From Candidatus Omnitrophota bacterium (GTDB lineage Bacteria > Omnitrophota > Gorgyraeia > B26-G9), in assembly GCA_016213925.1 (NCBI GenBank), contig JACQZH010000021.1, positions 6,295 through 70,294 on the forward strand: a DNA stretch of 64,000 nucleotides, in the 5' to 3' direction. Within the stretch, counting starts at the first letter, position 1, and every line of letters starts with the position of its first letter. Both the position numbers and the translations under genes were made by a program. Positions 3,285 through 45,041 of the stretch are shown piece after piece. The notes under the pieces are model-generated. The model made no database searches and was not told where the DNA came from. It saw only the letters and a list, made by a program, of their open reading frames with translations.

Positions 3285-3438
3285 ACGGGCAAGAAATTGC
3301 CCTTCTGCTTTTGTGAATTGAACAAAAAAAATTAAAGACGATTCTTCTTGGTATTACTAAAATATTAATTCCGCTGTTAAAATATAATTTTCTCTTTTCG
3401 GCTTACTTTCCCTGGTTAATTATGTTATAATACTGCTT

Positions 3439-7102: not shown

Positions 7103-8089
7103 ATGGAGATTGTAAAAAAAATAAGGCAAAGAGCGCAAAAGGCAAAGAGGACGATAGTTCTTTCAGAGGGGCAGGACGAACGTGTATTAAAAGCAGCGGG
7201 AATTATTGCTAGTGAAGGGTTGGCAAAAATTATACTTTTAGCCGATGAAAATGAATTGCGCGAAAAAGAGGATGAGCTGGAATTATATCTCAAAGATATA
7301 ACAGTTATAAATCACCTAAATTCTCCTGAATTGGAAAGTTTTAGCCAGGAATTCTTCGAATTAAGAAAAAGCAAGGGTACTACTATAGAAGAAGCGCGTA
7401 AGCAGATGGAAAAAAATGTTTATTTTGGAGCAATGATGGTCAGGCGCAGCCTTGCCGATGGTTTTGTGGCTGGCGCAATGACGACTACGGCAGATGTGGC
7501 AAAAGCGGCGATTTATTGTATCGGCTTTGGAGAAAAGGTAAAAACAATATCGAGCAGTTTTCTTGTGGAAGTTCCTGACTGCAGTTACGGCGCAAATGGT
7601 TCGTTTATCTTTGCTGATTGCGGCATAGTGCCGGATCCATCGCCTTCACAGTTGGCTAATATTGCTGTATCTGCTTCAGAGCTTTTTGAACTCTTGGTTG
7701 AAGAACAGCCGAGGGTTGCTTTGTTGAGTTTTTCTACCAAAGTAAGCGCTGAACATGAAAGGGTTTCTAAAGTAAAAGAAATCATTGAAGAGAGATACCC
7801 GGGATTGATTGCTGATGGAGAATTGCAACTGGATGCGGCGATTGTTCCAGAAGTAGCGGCAATAAAAGCGCCGGAAAGTAAAGTCGCAGGTTTAGCGAAT
7901 GTACTGATTTTTCCGGATCTTAATGCCGGAAATATTGCTTATAAGATGGTCCAGCGTTTGGCAAAAGCGCAGGTTATCGGCCCTATGATGACTGGATTGA
8001 AAAAGCCCTGCAGTGATTTATCCCGCGGGTGCACAATAGATGAGGTGGTTAATGCCGTATGCACAACGGCAATAAGAGCTATATCGTAA
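7103..8089 (+). CDS. pta: Phosphate acetyltransferase (Pta, short class)
   Basis: PTA_PTB family length and motifs. The ATG at 7103 is preceded by AAGAGGA. It is adjacent to ackA. Confidence 0.75.
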   Translation: MEIVKKIRQRAQKAKRTIVLSEGQDERVLKAAGIIASEGLAKIILLADENELREKEDELELYLKDITVINHLNSPELESFSQEFFELRKSKGTTIEEARKQMEKNVYFGAMMVRRSLADGFVAGAMTTTADVAKAAIYCIGFGEKVKTISSSFLVEVPDCSYGANGSFIFADCGIVPDPSPSQLANIAVSASELFELLVEEQPRVALLSFSTKVSAEHERVSKVKEIIEERYPGLIADGELQLDAAIVPEVAAIKAPESKVAGLANVLIFPDLNAGNIAYKMVQRLAKAQVIGPMMTGLKKPCSDLSRGCTIDEVVNAVCTTAIRAIS

Positions 8090-9688: not shown

Positions 9689-9794
9689 AGAGAATAAGTA
9701 TTCAGCCCCGAATGAAGCTGTTATTTTAGGCGGTTTTCCGGGGTCTTGAAGTGTAACTATAGAATTAAGTATTATCACAAAATTCGGGATAAGC

Positions 9795-9882
9795 GGTAAC
9801 CGGACAGCAGAGTTTGTAAGCGCATATGTAAAGCGAGTAACCATTGGTAACAATTTGTAACCGTTAGTAACTGCTGGTAACC
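9795..9882. promoter_or_regulatory. Array of GTAAC(C) direct repeats phased at 10 bp upstream of rpmF
   Basis: GTAAC begins at 9837, 9847, 9857, 9867 and 9877, exactly 10 bp apart, plus GGTAACC at 9795. A Family-A-like AAAATTCGGGATAA motif sits at 9778-9792. Confidence 0.3.
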
Positions 9883-9936
9883 GATAAAAGTATAACCTGT
9901 TTCAGGAGAATATAAACATAGCAATAGGAGGGTAAA

Positions 9937-17653: not shown

Positions 17654-17747
17654 GAGTTGTTGTTCTTATCCATCCGGGAAGTTTTTCTTTAGCTTAAGTT
17701 AATAACCAATGAAAGTTATTGTATTTTTAATTTTGAGTGTTTATAAA

Positions 17748-18032
17748 CCCAGATTTTGCAACACGAAAAATCTGCCCGTAGGGGCGATAGTCTACCTGTC
17801 TGCCAACAGGCAGGAATCCGTGTAGGATTTAGACTTGCCAGCGGCCTTGCCGCTAGGCAGGCTATCGAGGTATCCCGAATTTCGCCTGTCTGCTGCCAGG
17901 CAGGCTTGCACCTTTTAATGTTGCGTTGCATTAGAGTAACTCGTTATAATGAATTAGGATAGAAATAAAACAGGTACTTATGTGCAAAATTTGGGATAAT
18001 TCTTGTTTTCTATCGCAATTTTTGGGATAATG
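17748..18032. repeat. Structured intergenic repeat, family A, long copy
   Basis: It shares GGGGCGATAGTCTACCT...CTATCGAGGTATCC(C)GAATTTCGC...TTGCACCTTTTAATGYTGCGTTGCATTAGAGYAACTCGTTATA...GTGCAAAATTYGGGATAA with 26746-26962. Two extra hairpin-forming internal segments are present. The ORFs called inside it are probably spurious. Confidence 0.6.
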
Positions 18033-18068
18033 ATAAAAAATATCAAATATCGAAAAAGAAGGGAAAAT

Positions 18069-18290
18069 ATGAGCCATAAATTTTTTACAGTTATTTTAAT
18101 ATTTATTATGTTATTTTCAGATATGTTGACTAAAAAAGCTTACGCTTATTTAGATCCGGGTACCGGAAGTTATGTTTTTCAGGTAATTATAGCGTTTTTT
18201 GTGGGGGCTTTGTACATTATTAAACTGTTCTGGGCTAGGATCGCGTGTTTTATTAAAAGCTTATTCTTGAAAAAGAAAAAAAAGGAATAA
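18069..18290 (+). CDS. Small membrane protein with YLDPGTGSY motif
   Basis: 73 aa from the ATG at 18069 (RBS AAGGG) with two hydrophobic helices. It lies upstream of a sulfatase-like membrane protein. Confidence 0.35.
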   Translation: MSHKFFTVILIFIMLFSDMLTKKAYAYLDPGTGSYVFQVIIAFFVGALYIIKLFWARIACFIKSLFLKKKKKE

Positions 18291-18398
18291 ATCGGAAATT
18301 TATATAAATGTTCCAGGTTCTTTTCGCGACCCCAGCGGATTTGCTTTTAATAATTCCGTAAAAACAGAAGATTTCCTTTTAATTCCCCGAGAGAAATT

Positions 18399-20045
18399 AT
18401 GCTAATAGACAAAAAATTAAAACTTTATATTTTTGCCATATGTTTTTCGCTGCCGGCTGCTTTATTTATTAAATTTCTCGGTGAAAACCGGTATCCTTTG
18501 CTGACAGTTGAGACGGCGCTGCTTTTTTTTATTCTAGCAATTTTTAGCTTGGTTGTTGTAAGTATTAGTTCGTTTTCCCGGAATACGGCTCTTTTTATTA
18601 TCGGAACGGTTATTTTTGCATACTTCTATGAGATCACGCCTTTCTTGGAGAAGTTTATTTGTTTTTTTGAGCAATGGACAGTAAGAACTATTACCGGAAT
18701 TATTATTGTACTGGTTATATCCGCTTTTTCCCGCAGGTTGAAGTTATCAGACTGGATTTATTTTGGGATAGCTGCTTTTTTGACTCTTTCCGCTACAACT
18801 ATTGAAGCATACTTAAAAATTACTCGTGACAATAAAGTACGCTATGAAAAAAATAATCTTGTTCACAATAAAGGTTTAAAACCGGTATTGTTTATAATAT
18901 TTGATGAACATATGTCTATTGAAGGGATTCCGGAAAATATATCCGGAGCAGGTATTCTTAAACAGGAAATGGCTGAATTTTATGAGCGGTTTAATTTTTT
19001 GTATTTCCCGCGTGCTTACAGCCATTTTTTTGAATCAAGTTTGAGTATCCCTAACGCTTTGAATTTTACCGCTAACCCTGCAATAAGGTATTTGGAGAAA
19101 AGCGGCTTAAGGACAAAACGCTTATTAATGAATAGGGCGTTTGATTTTTTAAAAAATAGGGGGTATGTGTTCAGGATTTATCAATCCGATTACATTGATT
19201 TTTTTGATCGCAGTAATGAAAAAATAGAATACTGTTTTCAGTACTATAGCGGGATAGAGGAGATTCATAAACAGGATTTTAAGATTTTAGATAAGTCGTT
19301 GTTATTAATGGGGCATTTCTTATCGGCTATAAAAACCGGAGAAAAGTCTGTAGCTACTGTTGGTTTTCTTGTTTCATTAATTGTGGGAGACAGGATAAAT
19401 GATATCCCGATAATAGGCGCTCCGTATGACCGTCTGGGGCCCATCAGAACTATACCGGCAATTGAACAGCTTAAAAAAGACACGAACCATTTAAAAAGCG
19501 GTACGGTTTATTTTGCGCATTTATTGACGCCCCATCATCCTTTTGTGTATGATGAGCTGAATAATCTTAAAAAAGATCCGAGGGATTGGTTTGGCCCGAA
19601 TAGGTGGTTCAATATGTATATATATAAAAGGGATTTGGCCTATGAAGAATCATATGAAAGTTATTGTAAACAGTTGCGTGGTATGTATAATTGGCTTAAT
19701 GAGTGGTTTAATCAGCTTAGTGAGCGTAAAGAGTTCAATGACCTGATTATAATCGTGCTCGGGGACCATGGTTCGCGTATAACAGAAGAAGACCCGGATA
19801 ACGCGTCAGTCCTTAAAAATCCAAAGTGGGACAGTATTGCCAAAGACTCTTTTTCGGTATTATTTGCAGTAAAAGGATCCCAATTTGAAAAAGGAAGAGT
19901 AGATATTGCTAAACCTTTAGAACGTTTGCTGTTTGAATGTTTTTTTTATCCTCAAAAATTGAAAGTTGAATCAAGTGATGAAAACTATTTAACTTTAAAT
20001 TTATTAAATAACAAGCTGCTAAAAGTAAAATATGATAACTGGTGA
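18399..20045 (+). CDS. Membrane-anchored alkaline-phosphatase-superfamily (sulfatase/LtaS/EptA-like) protein
   Basis: About five N-terminal TM helices, then a soluble domain with PVLFIIFDEH and IIIVLGDHGS motifs typical of sulfatase-fold transferases. Confidence 0.45.
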   Translation: MLIDKKLKLYIFAICFSLPAALFIKFLGENRYPLLTVETALLFFILAIFSLVVVSISSFSRNTALFIIGTVIFAYFYEITPFLEKFICFFEQWTVRTITGIIIVLVISAFSRRLKLSDWIYFGIAAFLTLSATTIEAYLKITRDNKVRYEKNNLVHNKGLKPVLFIIFDEHMSIEGIPENISGAGILKQEMAEFYERFNFLYFPRAYSHFFESSLSIPNALNFTANPAIRYLEKSGLRTKRLLMNRAFDFLKNRGYVFRIYQSDYIDFFDRSNEKIEYCFQYYSGIEEIHKQDFKILDKSLLLMGHFLSAIKTGEKSVATVGFLVSLIVGDRINDIPIIGAPYDRLGPIRTIPAIEQLKKDTNHLKSGTVYFAHLLTPHHPFVYDELNNLKKDPRDWFGPNRWFNMYIYKRDLAYEESYESYCKQLRGMYNWLNEWFNQLSERKEFNDLIIIVLGDHGSRITEEDPDNASVLKNPKWDSIAKDSFSVLFAVKGSQFEKGRVDIAKPLERLLFECFFYPQKLKVESSDENYLTLNLLNNKLLKVKYDNW

Positions 20046-20155
20046 GATAATTTCTAAAAAAGGGAGGCTGTTTTTTCTGTCCGCTAATACTAACCCGCTA
20101 TTCTATACACTGGATAGTTATTGCATTCCAAATCTTAAGAATTTATAATAAAACC

Positions 20156-22734: not shown

Positions 22735-25700
22735 ATGTATTTTAAAAAGTTAGAACTCTACGGATTTAAATCTTTTGTAGATAAGACAACGCTTATTTTT
22801 GAACCAGGCGTTACTGCCATTGTCGGGCCTAACGGTACAGGCAAAAGCAATATTTCAGACGCGATAAAATGGGTGCTTGGCGAACAAAGCGCGAAATCAA
22901 TGCGCGGTTCAAAAATGGAGGACGTGATTTTTAACGGTACTGAAGCACGGCCTCCGGTGAATATGGCGGAAGTTTCGCTTATCCTTTCCAATGAAGAAAA
23001 ACGTTTAGCGATTGATTATGATGAAGTAACAATTACCCGCAGGCTTTACCGTTCCGGTGAAAGCGAATATCTTTTGAATAAAACCTTGGTGAGGCTTAAA
23101 GATATTCAGGAACTTCTTATGGGTACGGGAATAGGAACGGAGTCATATTCTCTCTTAGAACAAGGCCGCATTGACGCGATTTTAAGTTCAAAGCCCGAAG
23201 AACGCAGGGTTGTTTTTGAAGAAGCAAGCGGGATCACCCGTTTTAAAAAGAAAAAAGCGGAAGCGCTTAGAAGGCTGGAAGCTACAGAAGAAAATTTACT
23301 GCGCGTTAATGATATAATTACCGAAGTTAACCGCCAATTAGGATCGATCCAGCGCCAGGTAAATAAAGCCAGGCGTTATCAGGAACATTATGAGCAGCTT
23401 AAAATCCTCGATACGCAATATACCTACCGCGAATATAATGTCGTAAAAACAGAAAAAGAAAAATTTGAAGAGTGTGAAAATGCTTTTCGCAATGAATTGA
23501 ATTCCCTGGAGTCAGAACTTGCCGGATTGGCTCAAGCGTTTGACGAAATAAAAAGCGCTCTTTCTAAGGTTGAAGGGGATTATAGCCAGCTTAATGCCAA
23601 GGTTTTAAATGCCAGTACTCAAATCGAAAAAAATACAGACCGGATTCATTTGAATAATGAACGCATAGAGGAATTTGGCCAGCGCGCGGAAAATTTGACC
23701 GCGGATATTGATAATTCTAATGCTAAAATCAAAGAACTGGAAGAGCAATTTGCGCAGTTAAAAATCCGCTTGAATTCATTCCTTGAAGAAAAAAATAATA
23801 AGGTCCACAATTTAAATCTTAAACAAGCGAGTATTTGCGAGATTGAAAAGCTGATTAAGCAAATACATGAATCGATTGAATCAACCCGGCTGACGGCGGT
23901 AAAGCTTCTTTCCGAGCACGCGCAGATTAAAAATGAACTGGCAAAACTTTCCGCTAATATTCATAACGCGCATTCACGCCTGCTTCGGTTGCATCAGGAA
24001 AAAGAAAAGACGGAAAATGAGCTTTCGGCAATTAATGCCAAGATAGAAGAAAAAATGTCGCTTCTGGATGAGCTTAAGGGCAGGATAGATACGGAGGAAC
24101 TGCAGGTTAGTCAATTACGTTCTGATTATGATGCTTTAAATCAGGAGATCCGCAACCTGGAATCAGAGTATCAAAAAAGCAAGCAGTCTTTGATAGCCGG
24201 CCAGTCACAGCTTGAAGTGCTTGAAAAATTGATTAAAACATACGAAGGTTTTTCAAGTAACGTGAAAAATTTTATGCTTAAAAAAGAAACTCATCCGCAT
24301 CTTTTCGAGGGAGTTTATGATGTTCTTGTAAATCTGATTGATGTTACCCCAGGATTTGAAATGTGCGTAGAAAATGCGCTGGGGGAATATTTGCAGGCAG
24401 TTGTCGTTGATAATAAACAAACCGCGTATAAGCTGACAAATTTTTTAAAAGAGGAGCAGATAGGGCGGATAAGATTTATCGCGCTAGATTCTATTCCTTT
24501 GGGCCAAGAAACTATCATGCCTCAAATTGCAGAGAGAAGAATCACGGATGTTATTAAGCCGCAATTTGGTTATGAAAAGCTTATAAATTATCTTTTACGG
24601 GATACTTTTATTATCGGGGAAAAAAATCAAAACACGGAGAAAACAATTCCTGCGCAAGAAAATACCGGCTGTGAAAGTTTAACGCAATCCCTTAGCCAGG
24701 TAAAAGAAGGTAGAATGTTTTCTTATACGATAGCAAATGCCGAATCAGTGGAAGTTATTGGAGATTTTAATAATTGGGTAAGCAGCCTTAAAAGCAGGAT
24801 GGAACGGGCGCAGGCGGGAAATTGGCAAAAATTTATAGCTCTTAACCCGGGGGTTTACAGGTATAAGTTTATCGTAGATGGAAGATGGGTGCTTGATCCG
24901 GCTAATCCGCGTTCGCAGATAGACGATACAGGGAACGTGAATTCAGTAATTGAAGTGCTTGAATATCCGGTTCAGGCCAAGCCTCAAAGCATGATTTCCG
25001 ATTCTCAGGGGGATGCGGATTTCTCAGGCAGATTAATATCTCAAGATGGTCAAATCGATACATTGACTGAAGTTATCAGCAGCCCTGTCAAAGAGCATGG
25101 CGCCGGGTTGATATTGCAGAAAACCCAGATGAAGATGCTTCAGGAAGAATGCGTGTGTTTAAAAGAAGCGATTAAGTACTATGAAGCTAAGGAGCAGGAA
25201 AAACGGCAGCAGCTTGTCGGGATGGAACGTGAATTGACTCAACTTAATGATATTTTGCATAAAGAGAAAATCGTATTTGCAAATAAGGATTCAGAGCGTT
25301 CAAATATTGAAGCGGCAAAGAAGAAACTTGATGATGAAATAGCTATACTGAACCTGGAAATAGATGAAACAACGCTTGACGAGCAGGAACTGATGGCAAA
25401 AGAAATCGAAAAGAAGAAACGGCTTGAAGAAATAGATGAGCTGACAAGAGTCAATGAAAAGAAAATGGCCCAAGGCCAGGAGCTGATAGCTATAAAGACT
25501 CAAGAACGTGAAGAGCTGCTTGTTGTTATCGCCGAAATGAAGACGGAATTTTCTCTTTTAAATGAACAGGAAGCTGCCCTGAACACTAATTTTTCCATGC
25601 TCGATCAAAGCATTGAAAGTCAGCGGGCTAACGCGAAAGAATATTTAAGGCAGAAAGAAGATTTATTAAAGCGCAGTGAAGAGCTTTCTATTCAAAAAGA

Positions 25701-26745
25701 AGAGCTAAAACAGAAAACAACGGTTCTCGAAACTGAAAAACAGCAGATGGAGGAGGCATTACAGGGAATTTCCTTGCAGCGCGGTAAATTACTTGCTGAA
25801 TTTGAGGATGTCCAGAATCAGGTAAAAATAAAAGAAAACAGGATTAATGCTATAAAAAATAACATGCGCGATGTTGATATTAAGAAGGTAGAACTTAATT
25901 TTAAAATAGAATCACTGGTTAATTCGCTTAAACAAGCGTATAAGATTGATTTGCTTACGCTTACCTTGGAGCCTTCTGAAGGGGTTGACTGGAATAGCCA
26001 AAAACTGCAGATCGAGGAATTGAAAATAAAAGTTGAGCGGCTTGGCGCGGTTAATCTTGCCGCGGTCGAAGAAGAGGAAGAACTTAAGGAGAGAGCGGAA
26101 TTTCTTAACAGTCAAAAAGATGATTTAATATCGGCAAAGCAATCCCTGATGCAGGCAATCCAAAAAATAAACCGCACGACAAAAGAGTTATTCCTTGAAA
26201 CGTTTGAAAAGTCAAAAGCGACTTTTAAAGAATATTTTAAACTGCTTTTCGGAGGAGGAGATGCGCAGCTGCATCTTATCGAAGATAAGGATATCTTGGA
26301 AAGCGGTATCGATATTATAGTACGGCCTCCGGGAAAACGCCTGCAGAGTATTACATTGCTTTCAGGAGGGGAAAAAACACTTACGGCTATCGCGCTATTA
26401 TTCGCGATTTATAAAATAAAGCCTACGCCGTTCTGCGTGTTAGATGAAATGGATGCGCCGCTTGATGAATCGAATATTGACCGTTTTACCCGGGTACTGC
26501 AGGAGTTTCTCAAGGATTCGCAGTTTATCATTATTACTCATAATAAAAAGACAATCGGTATGGCTGACGTGATGTATGGAGTAACAATGGAAGAGGCGGG
26601 TATTTCCAAAATCGTATCAGTGAAATTCAGCGATTATAAAGAAAATTCCCAGGATAATTCCCAAGGTCTGGGTTACGAGCAAACGCCTCAAAAAGGTTTT
26701 GCAGAGACTGAAGTAACAATGCCGGAGAAGGTACTGGCGCATTGA
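22735..26745 (+). CDS. smc: Chromosome segregation protein SMC with ~150-aa CBM48-like insertion in hinge
   Basis: The N-terminal Walker A is GPNGTGKSN and the C-terminal signature is LSGGEKTLTAIALLFAI with Walker B CVLDEMDAPLD, joined by long coiled coils. 1336 aa versus ~1180 typical. Confidence 0.85.
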   Translation: MYFKKLELYGFKSFVDKTTLIFEPGVTAIVGPNGTGKSNISDAIKWVLGEQSAKSMRGSKMEDVIFNGTEARPPVNMAEVSLILSNEEKRLAIDYDEVTITRRLYRSGESEYLLNKTLVRLKDIQELLMGTGIGTESYSLLEQGRIDAILSSKPEERRVVFEEASGITRFKKKKAEALRRLEATEENLLRVNDIITEVNRQLGSIQRQVNKARRYQEHYEQLKILDTQYTYREYNVVKTEKEKFEECENAFRNELNSLESELAGLAQAFDEIKSALSKVEGDYSQLNAKVLNASTQIEKNTDRIHLNNERIEEFGQRAENLTADIDNSNAKIKELEEQFAQLKIRLNSFLEEKNNKVHNLNLKQASICEIEKLIKQIHESIESTRLTAVKLLSEHAQIKNELAKLSANIHNAHSRLLRLHQEKEKTENELSAINAKIEEKMSLLDELKGRIDTEELQVSQLRSDYDALNQEIRNLESEYQKSKQSLIAGQSQLEVLEKLIKTYEGFSSNVKNFMLKKETHPHLFEGVYDVLVNLIDVTPGFEMCVENALGEYLQAVVVDNKQTAYKLTNFLKEEQIGRIRFIALDSIPLGQETIMPQIAERRITDVIKPQFGYEKLINYLLRDTFIIGEKNQNTEKTIPAQENTGCESLTQSLSQVKEGRMFSYTIANAESVEVIGDFNNWVSSLKSRMERAQAGNWQKFIALNPGVYRYKFIVDGRWVLDPANPRSQIDDTGNVNSVIEVLEYPVQAKPQSMISDSQGDADFSGRLISQDGQIDTLTEVISSPVKEHGAGLILQKTQMKMLQEECVCLKEAIKYYEAKEQEKRQQLVGMERELTQLNDILHKEKIVFANKDSERSNIEAAKKKLDDEIAILNLEIDETTLDEQELMAKEIEKKKRLEEIDELTRVNEKKMAQGQELIAIKTQEREELLVVIAEMKTEFSLLNEQEAALNTNFSMLDQSIESQRANAKEYLRQKEDLLKRSEELSIQKEELKQKTTVLETEKQQMEEALQGISLQRGKLLAEFEDVQNQVKIKENRINAIKNNMRDVDIKKVELNFKIESLVNSLKQAYKIDLLTLTLEPSEGVDWNSQKLQIEELKIKVERLGAVNLAAVEEEEELKERAEFLNSQKDDLISAKQSLMQAIQKINRTTKELFLETFEKSKATFKEYFKLLFGGGDAQLHLIEDKDILESGIDIIVRPPGKRLQSITLLSGGEKTLTAIALLFAIYKIKPTPFCVLDEMDAPLDESNIDRFTRVLQEFLKDSQFIIITHNKKTIGMADVMYGVTMEEAGISKIVSVKFSDYKENSQDNSQGLGYEQTPQKGFAETEVTMPEKVLAH

Positions 26746-26962
26746 TTGGGATAAACCAAAATTTTGGGATAAAATCTAGTCTCAAATAATCCCAAAATTT
26801 GCCCGATAGGGGCGATAGTCTACCTATCTGCTGACAGGCAGGCTATCGAGGTATCCGAATTTCGCTTGCACCTTTTAATGCTGCGTTGCATTAGAGCAAC
26901 TCGTTATATGAATAAGGATAGAAACAAAACAGATATTCATGTGCAAAATTCGGGATAACCTC
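26746..26962. repeat. Structured intergenic repeat, family A, short copy
   Basis: It has the same core as 17748-18032. It is flanked by a TTTGGGATAA / TTATCCCAAAA inverted pair at the left end and GTGCAAAATTCGGGATAAC at the right end. It sits between the convergent smc and GGDEF genes. Confidence 0.6.
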
Positions 26963-27009
26963 AAAACAGATGTTTTTTTTCGCGAATTATTTCCGAGATA
27001 ATTACCTGG

Positions 27010-28119
27010 TTAAATTAATTCTTTGCTGAACATGCAGACTCTGTTGCGGCCGATATTCTTTGCCGCGTAAAGGGCTTTATCAGCGGCAGAAATAAGGCCT
27101 TCGGCAGTTGAAGAATCTTGCGGGAAGCTTGAGACGCCGATGCTTATTGTCGCGTGTTTTGGCGTGTCCGATTCGGGTGTTTGAAACGGAAAGGCTGCCG
27201 CGAAGCTGCGGATTCTTTCTGCGGAAGAGTAGGCTTTTTCCTTAAAGGTTTCAGGAAGGATAATTACGAATTCTTCTCCTCCGTATCGGGCGACAAGATC
27301 TACCTCCCTGCTTGAATTTTGAAAAATTTCCGCTAATTGCTTCAGGAGTTTATCTCCTGCAGGATGGCCGTATGTATCATTGAATTTTTTGAAAAAATCT
27401 ATGTCAATCATAAGCAGGCTTAACTGCCGGTTAAAGCGGCTTGCACGCTTTATTTCTTCGCGCAGCTGATGCTGAAAATATCCGTAATTCCAGAGATTTG
27501 TCAGGTGGTCAGTGTATGAAAGGATCAGGGTTTTTTCAAATTCCTGCGAATTTTCTATTGCTAATCCGGCCTGGTTTGCGAACATGGTAAGTTTCCAGAT
27601 ATCAGATTCGGTAATCTTATTTTTTGAAAAAAAGTTATCAACAAGCATGATACCGACAACACGGTTTTTTGCCAGCAAAGGCACGGTTACAAAATATTCC
27701 ATATTGAATAATGAGATTACCGGGTCGTTGCTTGAAAGCAATTTCTTGGAATCAGTTCTGCGGTCAAAATCCGCGTATGAGGATATGAGTTGATCCATGG
27801 TTTTTTGTGTGTTTTCAATATATTTCCAGATTTCATGAGCATTTTCTCCGGAATCTGGGCCGATTCCCATTCTCCCTTCAAGCTGGTTTTTCTTTTCGTT
27901 TACAAGAAATAACATGGCGCGGTTAAAACCAAGCCCTTCATTGGCTGTAACGCTGGTAAGGATGATGTATAAGATTTCGTCCAGGCGCAAAGTAGAGCGC
28001 ATGGCAATGCCTATCTCATAGAGCATTAGCAGCTCAGAGTGCTGTTTTTCATCAGGTGTGTGTACTTTATTTTGGTGGAGCATGCTTCTTATTTTTAAAC
28101 ACTTTCCTATTTTTGTCAA
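27010..28119 (-). CDS. GAF-domain diguanylate cyclase (GGDEF)
   Basis: The C-terminus carries RYGGEEFVIILPE (GGEEF active site). The N-terminal ~180 aa are GAF-like. Confidence 0.75.
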   Translation of the reverse strand: MTKIGKCLKIRSMLHQNKVHTPDEKQHSELLMLYEIGIAMRSTLRLDEILYIILTSVTANEGLGFNRAMLFLVNEKKNQLEGRMGIGPDSGENAHEIWKYIENTQKTMDQLISSYADFDRRTDSKKLLSSNDPVISLFNMEYFVTVPLLAKNRVVGIMLVDNFFSKNKITESDIWKLTMFANQAGLAIENSQEFEKTLILSYTDHLTNLWNYGYFQHQLREEIKRASRFNRQLSLLMIDIDFFKKFNDTYGHPAGDKLLKQLAEIFQNSSREVDLVARYGGEEFVIILPETFKEKAYSSAERIRSFAAAFPFQTPESDTPKHATISIGVSSFPQDSSTAEGLISAADKALYAAKNIGRNRVCMFSKELI

Positions 28120-28183: not shown

Positions 28184-28312
28184 ATAATCCCAGATTTTGC
28201 CGGCCTATCGGCAAGCATCTTTTTATGCGAGATATTATTTTATAACTGTTTTTTTCGAACTAAGTTACCATAATTCTTGTTTTCTATTGCAATTTTTGGG
28301 ATAATAAACAAA
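28184..28312. repeat. Family A-related framework sequence without the core, containing the shared promoter module
   Basis: ATAATCCCAGATTTTGCC and ATTCTTGTTTTCTATTGCAATTTTTGGGATAAT match the flanks of copy 1 but lack the ~190-bp core. It lies in the divergent region between the GGDEF gene and the rubrerythrin-like gene. Confidence 0.45.
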
Positions 28313-28354: not shown

Positions 28355-28849
28355 ATGAAAATAGAGGACCGTAAAGGCGAGTTAGTGATTACTGATTTTG
28401 CCGAACAGGAGGTTTACCAAATAGCCTCTAAGATAGAGAAAGACGGTATTTGGTTCTATCAAAAAGTAATGGAAAAAGTTAAAAATGAATATGCAAGGGA
28501 GATTTTAAAGGTTCTTATAGACGAGGAAAAAAAGCATCTTAAGTTGTTTGAAGAATTCTTATCGATAGCAAGGGAACATGGCTCTGATGATAATGAGGAT
28601 AATGATCTTTTGGATAGCATGGATTATGGTATTTTTCAGCCGTTTCAAGGGATGCCTAATATCGGCGAATTGATCGTAAATACCGATAAAGCGCTAAAAC
28701 TTGCGGTAATCGCGGAAGAAAAATCGATAAAATTTTACAGCGCCTGCTTAGGAAAAATATCTTCAAAAAAAACCATAATGGGGCTTACTGCGGTGATAGA
28801 AGAAGAAAAAAAGCATAAAGCCTTGTTTGAAAAAATGCGTTTGAAATAA
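28355..28849 (+). CDS. Rubrerythrin-like ferritin-fold diiron protein (no rubredoxin domain)
   Basis: Two half-domains with E...EEKKHLKLFEE and E...EEEKKHKALFEK (ExxH diiron ligands). RBS AAAGGAG. Confidence 0.55.
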   Translation: MKIEDRKGELVITDFAEQEVYQIASKIEKDGIWFYQKVMEKVKNEYAREILKVLIDEEKKHLKLFEEFLSIAREHGSDDNEDNDLLDSMDYGIFQPFQGMPNIGELIVNTDKALKLAVIAEEKSIKFYSACLGKISSKKTIMGLTAVIEEEKKHKALFEKMRLK

Positions 28850-38829: not shown

Positions 38830-38967
38830 GATCAAACGTAATGGGACAGCTTTTAATCTCTTTGCTGAAAATCCCCGGGTTTTCTCCAGAAAAATTCTCT
38901 TAAAATTTCCAGGGCTAAGTTCTCTTAATCCTCGGGATTATCCGCGCGATTCTTAAAATACTAGTAA

Positions 38968-39202
38968 CAGTTCAGCGTTAGGAAATTTGTTCGATATGCG
39001 GTGCGAACGTAACCGGTTCACTCCGTTCGCTACGGCTGCTCGTCGCAATCGGATAAAATTTTTCCGACTGTCCCCCCATCCCCCACAGGGTGGGCTCAGG
39101 TAAGCACTTCTGGAAAAATTTCATCCTCATAAGCATGCTCCTGTGCGGCCTTATGCTCACTACGTGAACCGATTACGTTCCTTCTGCTAAGAGCTGAACT
39201 AT
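38968..39202. repeat. Palindromic intergenic repeat, family B, copy 1 (MITE-like)
   Basis: About 85-90% identical to 44718-44958. It has terminal inverted repeats CAGTTCAGCG...GCTGAACT. The internal arms are mutually complementary (GAACGTAACCGGTTCAC / GTGAACCGATTACGTTC and GGATAAAATTTTTCC / GGAAAAATTTCATCC). Confidence 0.6.
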
Positions 39203-39293
39203 TACAAATACTACATATCAATAAATGACATGAAACTTCCTGCAGTTTTTATCATCAAAATATAAAGGGCAGTTGAATAAAGAAAGGCACGGT

Positions 39294-44708: not shown

Positions 44709-44717
44709 TATGGTAAT

Positions 44718-44958
44718 AGTTCAGCGTTCAGAAGTTTGAGTTAATAATGATGCGGTACAGACTCAATCGTCGCTCTGCATTCGCAGACGGTGCTCGTCGC
44801 AATCGGATAAAATTTTCCCGACTGCCCCCAGCATCCCCCACAGGGCGGTAGTTCAGGTAAGCACTTCTGGGGAAATTTTATCCTCATAAGCGAGTTTCTG
44901 CGCGCCTTATGCTCACTACGTGAGCCGATCGAGTCTCTTCTGCTAAGAGCTGAACTGT
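44718..44958. repeat. Palindromic intergenic repeat, family B, copy 2
   Basis: See copy 1. It starts 10 bp after the radC stop. Confidence 0.6.
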
Positions 44959-45041
44959 TAAATAATATGCGATAGTTCATCTTATGTGAATGAAAGGTTC
45001 CAAACTCTGAACTGATACAATAAGATCGGGAGGGTAAATAG

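Follow-up and report, generated by a model that had tools for sequence, protein, structure and literature searches.

Bacterial MITEs, such as the Correia/NEMIS elements of Neisseria, ERIC, RUP and Nezha, are non-coding, intergenic elements of 150-300 nt, with terminal inverted repeats and sharp boundaries, that occupy unrelated sites, occur in internally deleted variants and adopt a stable fold on transcription. The ends of the Correia elements look like -10 boxes, from which transcription could run outwards. We identified a repeat family with the same set of traits, including similar ends, in a stretch of 64,000 nucleotides (the window) from a metagenome-assembled genome (MAG) of Candidatus Omnitrophota with a G+C content of 39.5%, and refer to it as family A. 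No sequence similarity between family A and the bacterial MITEs is known, and the likeness is one of general features. Family A additionally differs from them in that no parent insertion sequence was found, in that a third copy of the terminal motif lies within the element, and in that the copy number appears to be low. A flanking duplication was seen at one copy only and is 5 bp long, as opposed to the TA of the Correia elements.

Two other groups of repeats invite comparison. Like the REP, REPIN and BIME sequences, family A is lineage-specific, presents its motif in extragenic space as singlets, palindromes and inverted doublets, and mostly lacks flanking duplications, and RAYT-like genes are present in related Omnitrophota. 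In contrast to the REPINs, it contains a conserved core of 200 nt. The PATEs, which are derived from IS200/IS605 and include stand-alone TnpB guide-RNA scaffolds, resemble family A in the left-end hairpin, the structured non-coding body and the absence of a duplication at most copies. PATEs lack classical terminal inverted repeats, however, which family A possesses; the left flanks of the four family A copies (GTTT, TCAA, TCAC and ACGG) share no conserved target tetranucleotide, and a hairpin is found near the left end only, rather than at both ends. Neither tnpA nor tnpB was found in the window. The sequence ACCCAAATTTTGCAACAG bears a loose resemblance to IS982-type ends. The IS982 family was rejected, as the published end consensus AC(N)6T(N)5TT (PMC7335449) is not matched: positions 15-16 read AC instead of TT, and the initial AC varies from copy to copy.

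The window comes from an uncultivated phylum of very small, partly host-dependent bacteria, in which our literature searches turned up no reported mobile or repeated non-coding elements. As a kind of element it is familiar, but the family itself is undescribed in Rfam, in the phage collection and in the searchable papers, and its copies have to date come to light in only a few Omnitrophota genomes. We consider that the copy studied here, copy 2, is a decayed insertion of a new lineage-specific, non-coding MITE-like repeat family, and assign this reading a probability of about 0.5.

Structure of the copy between smc and the GGDEF gene

The smc gene (22735-26745, + strand) and a gene for a GAF-GGDEF protein (27010-28119, - strand) are convergent, and the 264-bp spacer between their 3' ends holds copy 2. 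The GAF-GGDEF protein is 100% identical to the protein of an NCBI MAG, and its next relatives reach at most 70% identity. Copy 2 is an internally deleted, non-coding element of 174 nt at 26786-26959. A first-pass annotation had placed a repeat at 26746-26962; all of the sequence features that it described there are present, including the core, but the limits have to be redrawn, since positions 26746-26785 are flanking spacer. Two extra motif copies, both in + orientation, lie outside the element in this part of the spacer (26745-26772). The first, ATTGGGATAA (26745-26754), overlaps the smc stop codon; the second, CAAAATTTTGGGATAA (26757-26772), makes up, together with the left end of copy 2, an inverted repeat of 12 nt without mismatches. 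The arms of this pair, AAATTTTGGGAT at 26759-26770 and ATCCCAAAATTT at 26789-26800, are 100% complementary over 12 nt and stand 18 nt apart; the pair was previously drawn with arms of 13 nt and a spacing of N14, which takes in a mismatch at the outer end.

From left to right on the + strand, copy 2 begins with the left terminal repeat ATAATCCCAAAATTTGC (26786-26802), in which the P1 hairpin of the other copies has collapsed. The hairpins GCCCGATAGGGGC and CGATAGTCTA-CCTATCTGCTGACAGGCAGG-CTATCG follow (26801-26848), with a deletion junction at an AGGCAGG repeat (26836-26842). A third, internal motif copy, GGTATCCGAATTTCGC plus TGCAC (26850-26871), is complementary to the right end over 11 nt (91%). 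The most conserved block is the hairpin TTTTAATGC-TGCGTT-GCATTAGAG (26873-26896), which shows 96% identity in the within-window repeat comparison and is identical in all four known copies save for a Y transition (T in copy 1). An A-rich segment, predicted to be mostly unpaired (26897-26940), contains most of the substitutions between copies, and leads into the right terminal repeat GTGCAAAATTCGGGATAAC (26941-26959), where a right-end motif had also been annotated. The pentanucleotide CTCAA stands on both sides of the element, at 26781-26785 and 26960-26964, with a chance probability of approximately 0.03 by rough estimate, and may represent a 5-bp target-site duplication. Copy 1 and the copy in L007 have no flanking duplication.

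Copies and shared anatomy of family A

Copy 1 is located approximately 9 kb from copy 2, at 17743-18000 on the + strand (258 nt), between a co-directional etfA-like gene and small membrane-protein gene, and is bounded by a left repeat at 17743-17760 and a right repeat at 17983-18000. The core of copy 2 (26794-26958) aligns to copy 1 (17767-17999) in two blocks, one of 38 nt with 92% identity and one of 145 columns, gaps counted, with 79% (blastn E values of 4e-09 and 1.5e-33).

Two further copies were found by exact-pattern scans, one scan for each collection, that yielded one match among 185,579 species genomes and one among 241 million metagenome records. The third copy (L006) lies at approximately 161-435 of the JGI metagenome contig Ga0066636_10077217, convergent with a glutaredoxin-like gene and nrdD. 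The fourth (L007) lies at 1469-1706 of JACQXK010000058.1, a contig of another groundwater Omnitrophota MAG, and is antisense to both of its neighbours, which are unrelated. The two elements are 94-96% identical to copy 2 over 113-123 nt, and their contigs have nothing in common with the window outside the element; copy 1 and L007 share the same architecture, with 84% identity over 256 columns including gaps. The core thus occurs elsewhere, and at least three genomes or metagenomes carry the repeat at sites that are not orthologous. With four copies in four gene contexts, and empty sites in relatives, family A is a non-orthologous multicopy repeat in the manner of the MITEs. Only two copies were seen in 64 kb, and one exact-pattern match in each large collection, so a high copy number is not supported.

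Other searches returned no additional copies. An earlier scan of genome contigs with the 18-mer TAGGGGCGATAGTCTACC gave no match, because this pattern took in two bases of a hairpin that is absent or changed in the other copies. A covariance model of the 3' half recovered only the four copies in 133 kb (the window and 69 kb of relatives' loci, seven loci in all), with no diverged extras. Two core patterns found nothing in scans of viral contigs, where the end motif gave two chance matches in unrelated AT-rich sequence, and blastn against the phage collection gave no match to the element. In exact-protein look-ups for strain variants, the 477-aa DUF4139 protein, P0001, rubrerythrin and the 73-aa protein had no record, and the ACP retrieved only two Logan contigs of 1.5 kb, identical to the window. 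The organism is present in the sequencing runs SRR12113402 and SRR12113406.

The full form of family A is approximately 240 nt long and bounded by terminal inverted repeats of 16-18 nt, TTATCCCRAATTTTGCA ... TGCAAAATTYGGGATAA. The left repeat TTATCCCAAATTTTGCA and the right repeat TGCAAAATTYGGGATAA both contain the motif TTTGGGATAA, which forms the heart of the two ends and recurs in the internal copy; the earlier suggestion that the element is built around this motif therefore holds. Similarity begins at ATWAWCCC in all four copies and stops at GGGATWA in three of the four, L006 having no right terminal repeat. The arms are complementary over 18 nt at 83% in copy 1, over 13 nt at 92% in L007, and at 13 of 16 positions, by eye, in copy 2. 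The family accordingly has the terminal inverted repeats and sharply defined ends that are typical of MITEs.

Within these boundaries, the P1 hairpin, which uses part of the left repeat, is followed by the small hairpin GCCCGATAGGGGC and then by a branched GC-rich domain closed by CGATA/TATCG. The internal motif copy (GTATCCCGAATTTCGC-TTGCAC), complementary to the right end, comes next, and precedes a 43-nt block, CTTGCACCTTTTAATGYTGCGTTGCATTAGAGYAACTCGTTATA, that is near-invariant across the copies; the A-rich stretch completes the series before the right repeat. The segment of 47 nt at 17815-17861 of copy 1 is also found in L007 and, for the most part, in L006, and both of these copies have GGATTTAGACTTGCCAGCGGCCTTGC. 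The segment is therefore ancestral, and copy 2 lost it through a deletion between two AGGCAGG repeats. The P1 hairpin has likewise been lost from copy 2. Copy 1 has a single insertion that no other copy shares, the 20-nt hairpin at 17885-17904, and L006 has extra hairpins of its own. Copy 2 had been described as the core of copy 1 minus two internal insertions: the common core is confirmed, but only the 20-nt hairpin was inserted, and the other difference is the 47-nt deletion from copy 2.

Family A has no coding capacity, every frame being broken by indels of 1, 20 and 47 nt between copies. A chimera of all open frames, compared with a collection of 5.8 billion sequences, gave no protein match in any frame at E values up to 10. 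We also rejected a small peptide or type I toxin: the sole recurring open reading frame (MLRCIR...) has no ribosome-binding site, is basic and not hydrophobic, and varies in length.

We additionally observed a second intergenic repeat, family B, of approximately 250 nt with nested inverted repeats, at 38959-39210 and 44709-44960 of the window (5.75 kb apart). Its 17-nt middle stem differs between the two copies yet is complementary in both (GAACGTAACCGGTTCAC/GTGAACCGATTACGTTC versus AGACTCAATCG..GCTC/GAGCCGATCGAGTCT), and it has no match in Rfam. As family B has inverted-repeat ends and occurs in the same window, elements of this kind are evidently common in this genome.

Empty sites in relatives and a proposed course of insertion

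The smc and GGDEF genes are also convergent in three related loci, L001, L003 and L010 (the closest relative), whose GGDEF proteins are 66-70% identical to that of the window. In L001, 20 bp are common to the two genes, and gaps of 31 bp and 28 bp separate them in L003 and L010, respectively. Neither the element nor the motif is present anywhere in these three loci. The insertion site of L007 is likewise empty in L011, where a RAYT-like gene is found instead, and in L012. At such distances, the absence of the element neither dates nor proves an insertion; the empty sites show that the element is lineage-specific, and not when it arrived. Of the roles proposed for copy 2 at first pass, a selfish insertion is the one that best fits the comparison of the orthologous junction, which is empty in all three relatives.

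The surroundings of the two copies differ between relatives in other respects. In L010, only 140 bp (7867-8007) separate etfA from a 242-aa gene, where the window has 2.4 kb (17654-20155) that contain copy 1, the 73-aa membrane-protein gene and a 548-aa sulfatase-like gene, and in L003 smc directly follows etfA. The SMC protein of the window has a CBM48/AMPK1_CBM carbohydrate-binding domain at residues ~662-743, just past the hinge; since the same domain is present in the SMC of L001, L003 and L010, it may characterise this part of the Omnitrophota.

We infer that copy 2 was inserted, in the ancestry of this genome, into a convergent smc/GGDEF junction that was otherwise empty. A transposase encoded elsewhere would recognise the terminal repeats and move the element in trans, and the same enzyme would probably also recognise the third, internal motif copy. 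No transposase was found in the window, either by Pfam scans of 30 open reading frames or by tblastn with the Y1 transposases of relatives; nor did we find an autonomous element with family A ends, a parent with a transposase being absent from the window. After insertion, the copies may have decayed, through small deletions between short direct repeats in copy 2, and through the gain of small GC-rich hairpins in copy 1 and L006. Neighbouring genes might be affected in two ways: the outward-facing GGGATAAT ends could act as -10 boxes, and the folded element could form part of the 3' untranslated region of the smc and etfA transcripts. Solo copies of the terminal motif are also present in promoter regions, and would not be expected if family A were purely a transposon.

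Folding of family A and a possible RNA function

The main rival explanation is that the copies of family A are genes for a structured small RNA, transcribed from the + strand and folded, which might for example regulate in trans through its conserved, unpaired A-rich part; on this view, the hairpins that vary between copies would be expansion segments at helix tips. One multi-hairpin fold fits all of the copies, with 90.5% of cells paired, against 29-46% when the partners are slid, and the folding energies are far below those of shuffled sequences (z of -5 to -7). Compensatory double changes are seen in two local helices (A-U to G-C in P1 of copy 1, and GUCUA/UAGAC to GGCUA/UAGCC in L007), three single changes yield G-U pairs on the + strand, and the length differences between copies are located at helix tips. 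In a hand-curated structure, the comparison of L007 with copy 1 gives 1 broken pair against 8.4 expected, a result that we discount because the structure was chosen with all of the copies in view, and because unbiased controls were not significant. When the structures come from folds of single sequences, the surplus of intact pairs does not reach significance (P of 0.03-0.99) and neither strand is favoured; shuffles match the observed covariation in 90-107 of 500 trials, in tests that rest on four copies, which are too few.

Further observations count against such an RNA. Folding is equally good on both strands, and the copies have neither a conserved promoter upstream nor a terminator downstream. 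Rfam 15 gave no match at the gathering score across the whole window, and searches with the four copies under permissive filters, up to an E value of 10, returned nothing beyond noise (E > 0.4, no more than 19 bits). A single copy in each of the two large collections is also too narrow a distribution for a housekeeping RNA. We therefore regard the small-RNA explanation as unlikely, and the patterns in the sequence as no more than suggestive of selection on the fold.

A composite explanation, to which we give a low probability, holds that family A is an undescribed structured Omnitrophota RNA carried on a mobile module. Its fold, under selection, would consist of the P1 hairpin, a P2 domain that branches and varies at its tips, and a 3' domain that the internal and right-end motifs close by pairing with each other. 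The 43-nt block and the A-rich loop would act in trans, perhaps in regulation or in a guide-like partnership with an unlinked protein, and the end motifs that stand alone would have been co-opted as promoters.

Occurrence and orientation of the terminal motif

The terminal motif, whose recurrence was noted at first pass, is found within the window more often than chance would predict. With at most one mismatch, TTTGGGATAA has 26 matches against 12.4 expected, and no shuffle of 100 reached this number; the 16-mer GCAAAATTTGGGATAA, with at most three mismatches, has 10 against 2.9 expected, again with none of 100 shuffles equalling it. All 10 of the latter sites fall in four intergenic regions (9777; 17744-18030; 26757-26958; 28185-28304). 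In two of the four copies of the element, an additional solo motif lies no more than 15 nt from one end, an arrangement that may reflect targeting of the motif, as had been suggested at first pass.

Several solo sites lie in front of genes. A promoter-like block of 43 nt, TTGTTT-17-GATAAT (17996-18038, + strand), overlaps the right end of copy 1, ends in a solo motif (18015), and is located upstream of the small membrane-protein gene (73 aa), whose ATG is at ~18070. A second copy of this block (28270-28312, + strand), 91% identical and with a solo motif at 28289, is found upstream of the rubrerythrin gene (28355-28849). Standing before two unrelated genes, the blocks look, from their sequences, like a duplicated promoter. 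Just upstream of the small membrane-protein gene, GATAATGATAAAAAATATC (18026-18044) agrees at 16 of 19 positions with the Fur-box consensus of E. coli, an agreement that may be due to chance in AT-rich DNA.

A solo motif on the - strand, GCAAAATCTGGGATTA (28185-28200), lies upstream of the GGDEF gene and points at it. A hairpin, TTTGCCGGCCTATCGGCAAG, with CATCTTTTTA after it (28196-28225), begins inside this motif and has the form of a terminator on the + strand; it is located where the promoters of the divergent GGDEF and rubrerythrin genes lie. The imperfect palindrome TTATCACAAAATTCGGGATAA (9772-9792), made of two motif halves, is situated in the promoter region of the rpmF-plsX operon; directly after it, and upstream of rpmF, approximately six GTAAC/GGTAAC repeats are spaced at ~10-12 nt in non-coding DNA (9793-9885). 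In L007, the motif occurs outside the element as a palindrome (1288-1310) and as a singlet (3407). This palindrome lies at or just after a predicted -10 box, as does, by our own reading, that at 9772 of the window.

Five singlets (18015, 28289, 28185, 9780, and 3407 of L007) have their GGGATAAT end directed at the downstream gene, and this end may therefore serve as a -10-like box. The motif was found neither at the orthologous promoters of the closest relative, L010, nor in any of the five relatives' loci, indicating that it is part of the repeat system of this lineage, and not a conserved regulon. The L007 contig, from a low-coverage MAG, stops 20 nt into another left-end motif (ATTATCCCAAATTTTGCCTG, 3405-3425); because assemblies break at repeats, this suggests that further copies of the motif or the element are present but unassembled.

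Other identities of the motif were considered and rejected. It agrees with the DnaA box at 7 of 9 positions, but has no replication-origin context, since nearly all of the genes in the window run one way. Its spacing does not fit a sigma-54 or sigma-28 promoter, and it is much too rare for a DNA uptake sequence.

Alternative explanations for the motif and the element

The forms in which the motif occurs raise the question of a system of the REP/REPIN type. The 21-22-nt palindrome TTATCCCAAATTTTGGGATAA and its halves would represent the REP, moved as folded single-stranded DNA by a RAYT (Y1) encoded elsewhere, and family A would be a composite, BIME-like arrangement; this would amount to a mechanistic variant of the mobile-repeat reading. 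The motif is indeed found as singlets, as head-to-head palindromes (9772-9792, and 1288-1310 of L007) and as a spaced inverted doublet (26759-26800), so that short palindromes in hairpin-capable inverted doublets are present, as in REPINs. Every occurrence is extragenic, and two of the three complete copies have no flanking duplication. RAYT-like Y1_Tnp genes, of 313-327 aa, were identified in L001 (11519-12502, - strand) and L011 (7361-8302, + strand), the latter flanked by its own inverted GGGTCAAACCTTGACATTAGACA repeats and the former with a GTAG-led hairpin nearby, indicating that REP/RAYT systems exist in the phylum. However, no Y1_Tnp similarity was detected in the 64-kb window, and thus no RAYT stands beside the motif there; GGGTCAAACCTTGACATTAGACA, the repeat at the RAYT genes of relatives, is unrelated to it in sequence. 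There is also no conserved 5' tetranucleotide of the GTAG type, and the element is bigger and more complex than a REPIN, so we find this origin quite improbable.

Alternatively, the motif might be regulatory DNA, either a promoter with GGGATAAT as the -10-like part or the operator of a dimeric regulator, with family A as a duplicated multi-site regulatory region. All of the solo sites lie upstream of genes, and the aim of the five singlets, the 43-nt block common to two promoters and the position of the palindromic forms relative to predicted -10 boxes would accord with such a function. In copy 2, however, the sites are directed at the 3' ends of a convergent gene pair, which offer no target for regulation, and a promoter scan made no call at motif sites. 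The lack of the motif in relatives, including the orthologous promoters of the closest, is a further objection, and a regulatory function leaves unexplained both the 200-nt conserved core between the sites and the presence of the element by unrelated genes elsewhere. We accordingly view it as very unlikely.

A terminator or insulator between the convergent genes, acting against read-through, as the first-pass annotation had also proposed, is extremely improbable: the position of copy 2, its stable hairpins, which could impede polymerase or exonucleases, and the T8 run that follows at 26973-26980 would suit such a role, but no terminator-like site (a hairpin plus T tract) was found on either strand across 26746-27010, the overlapping or nearly abutting genes of the three relatives (28-31 bp where they do not overlap) manage without the element and therefore show that no insulator is needed at this junction, and the other copies are located elsewhere, between co-directional genes (copy 1) or antisense to both neighbours (L007).

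Implications

Read as a MITE-like repeat family, family A is at present an ordinary kind of element, mainly of use for annotation. A repeat family with defined ends provides a marker for rearrangement and strain variation in these Omnitrophota MAGs, and offers an explanation for some of the assembly breaks. It is also a possible source of new promoters, as the GGGATAAT end is found alone before several genes. Should the fold turn out to be under selection, family A would represent a new class of RNA.
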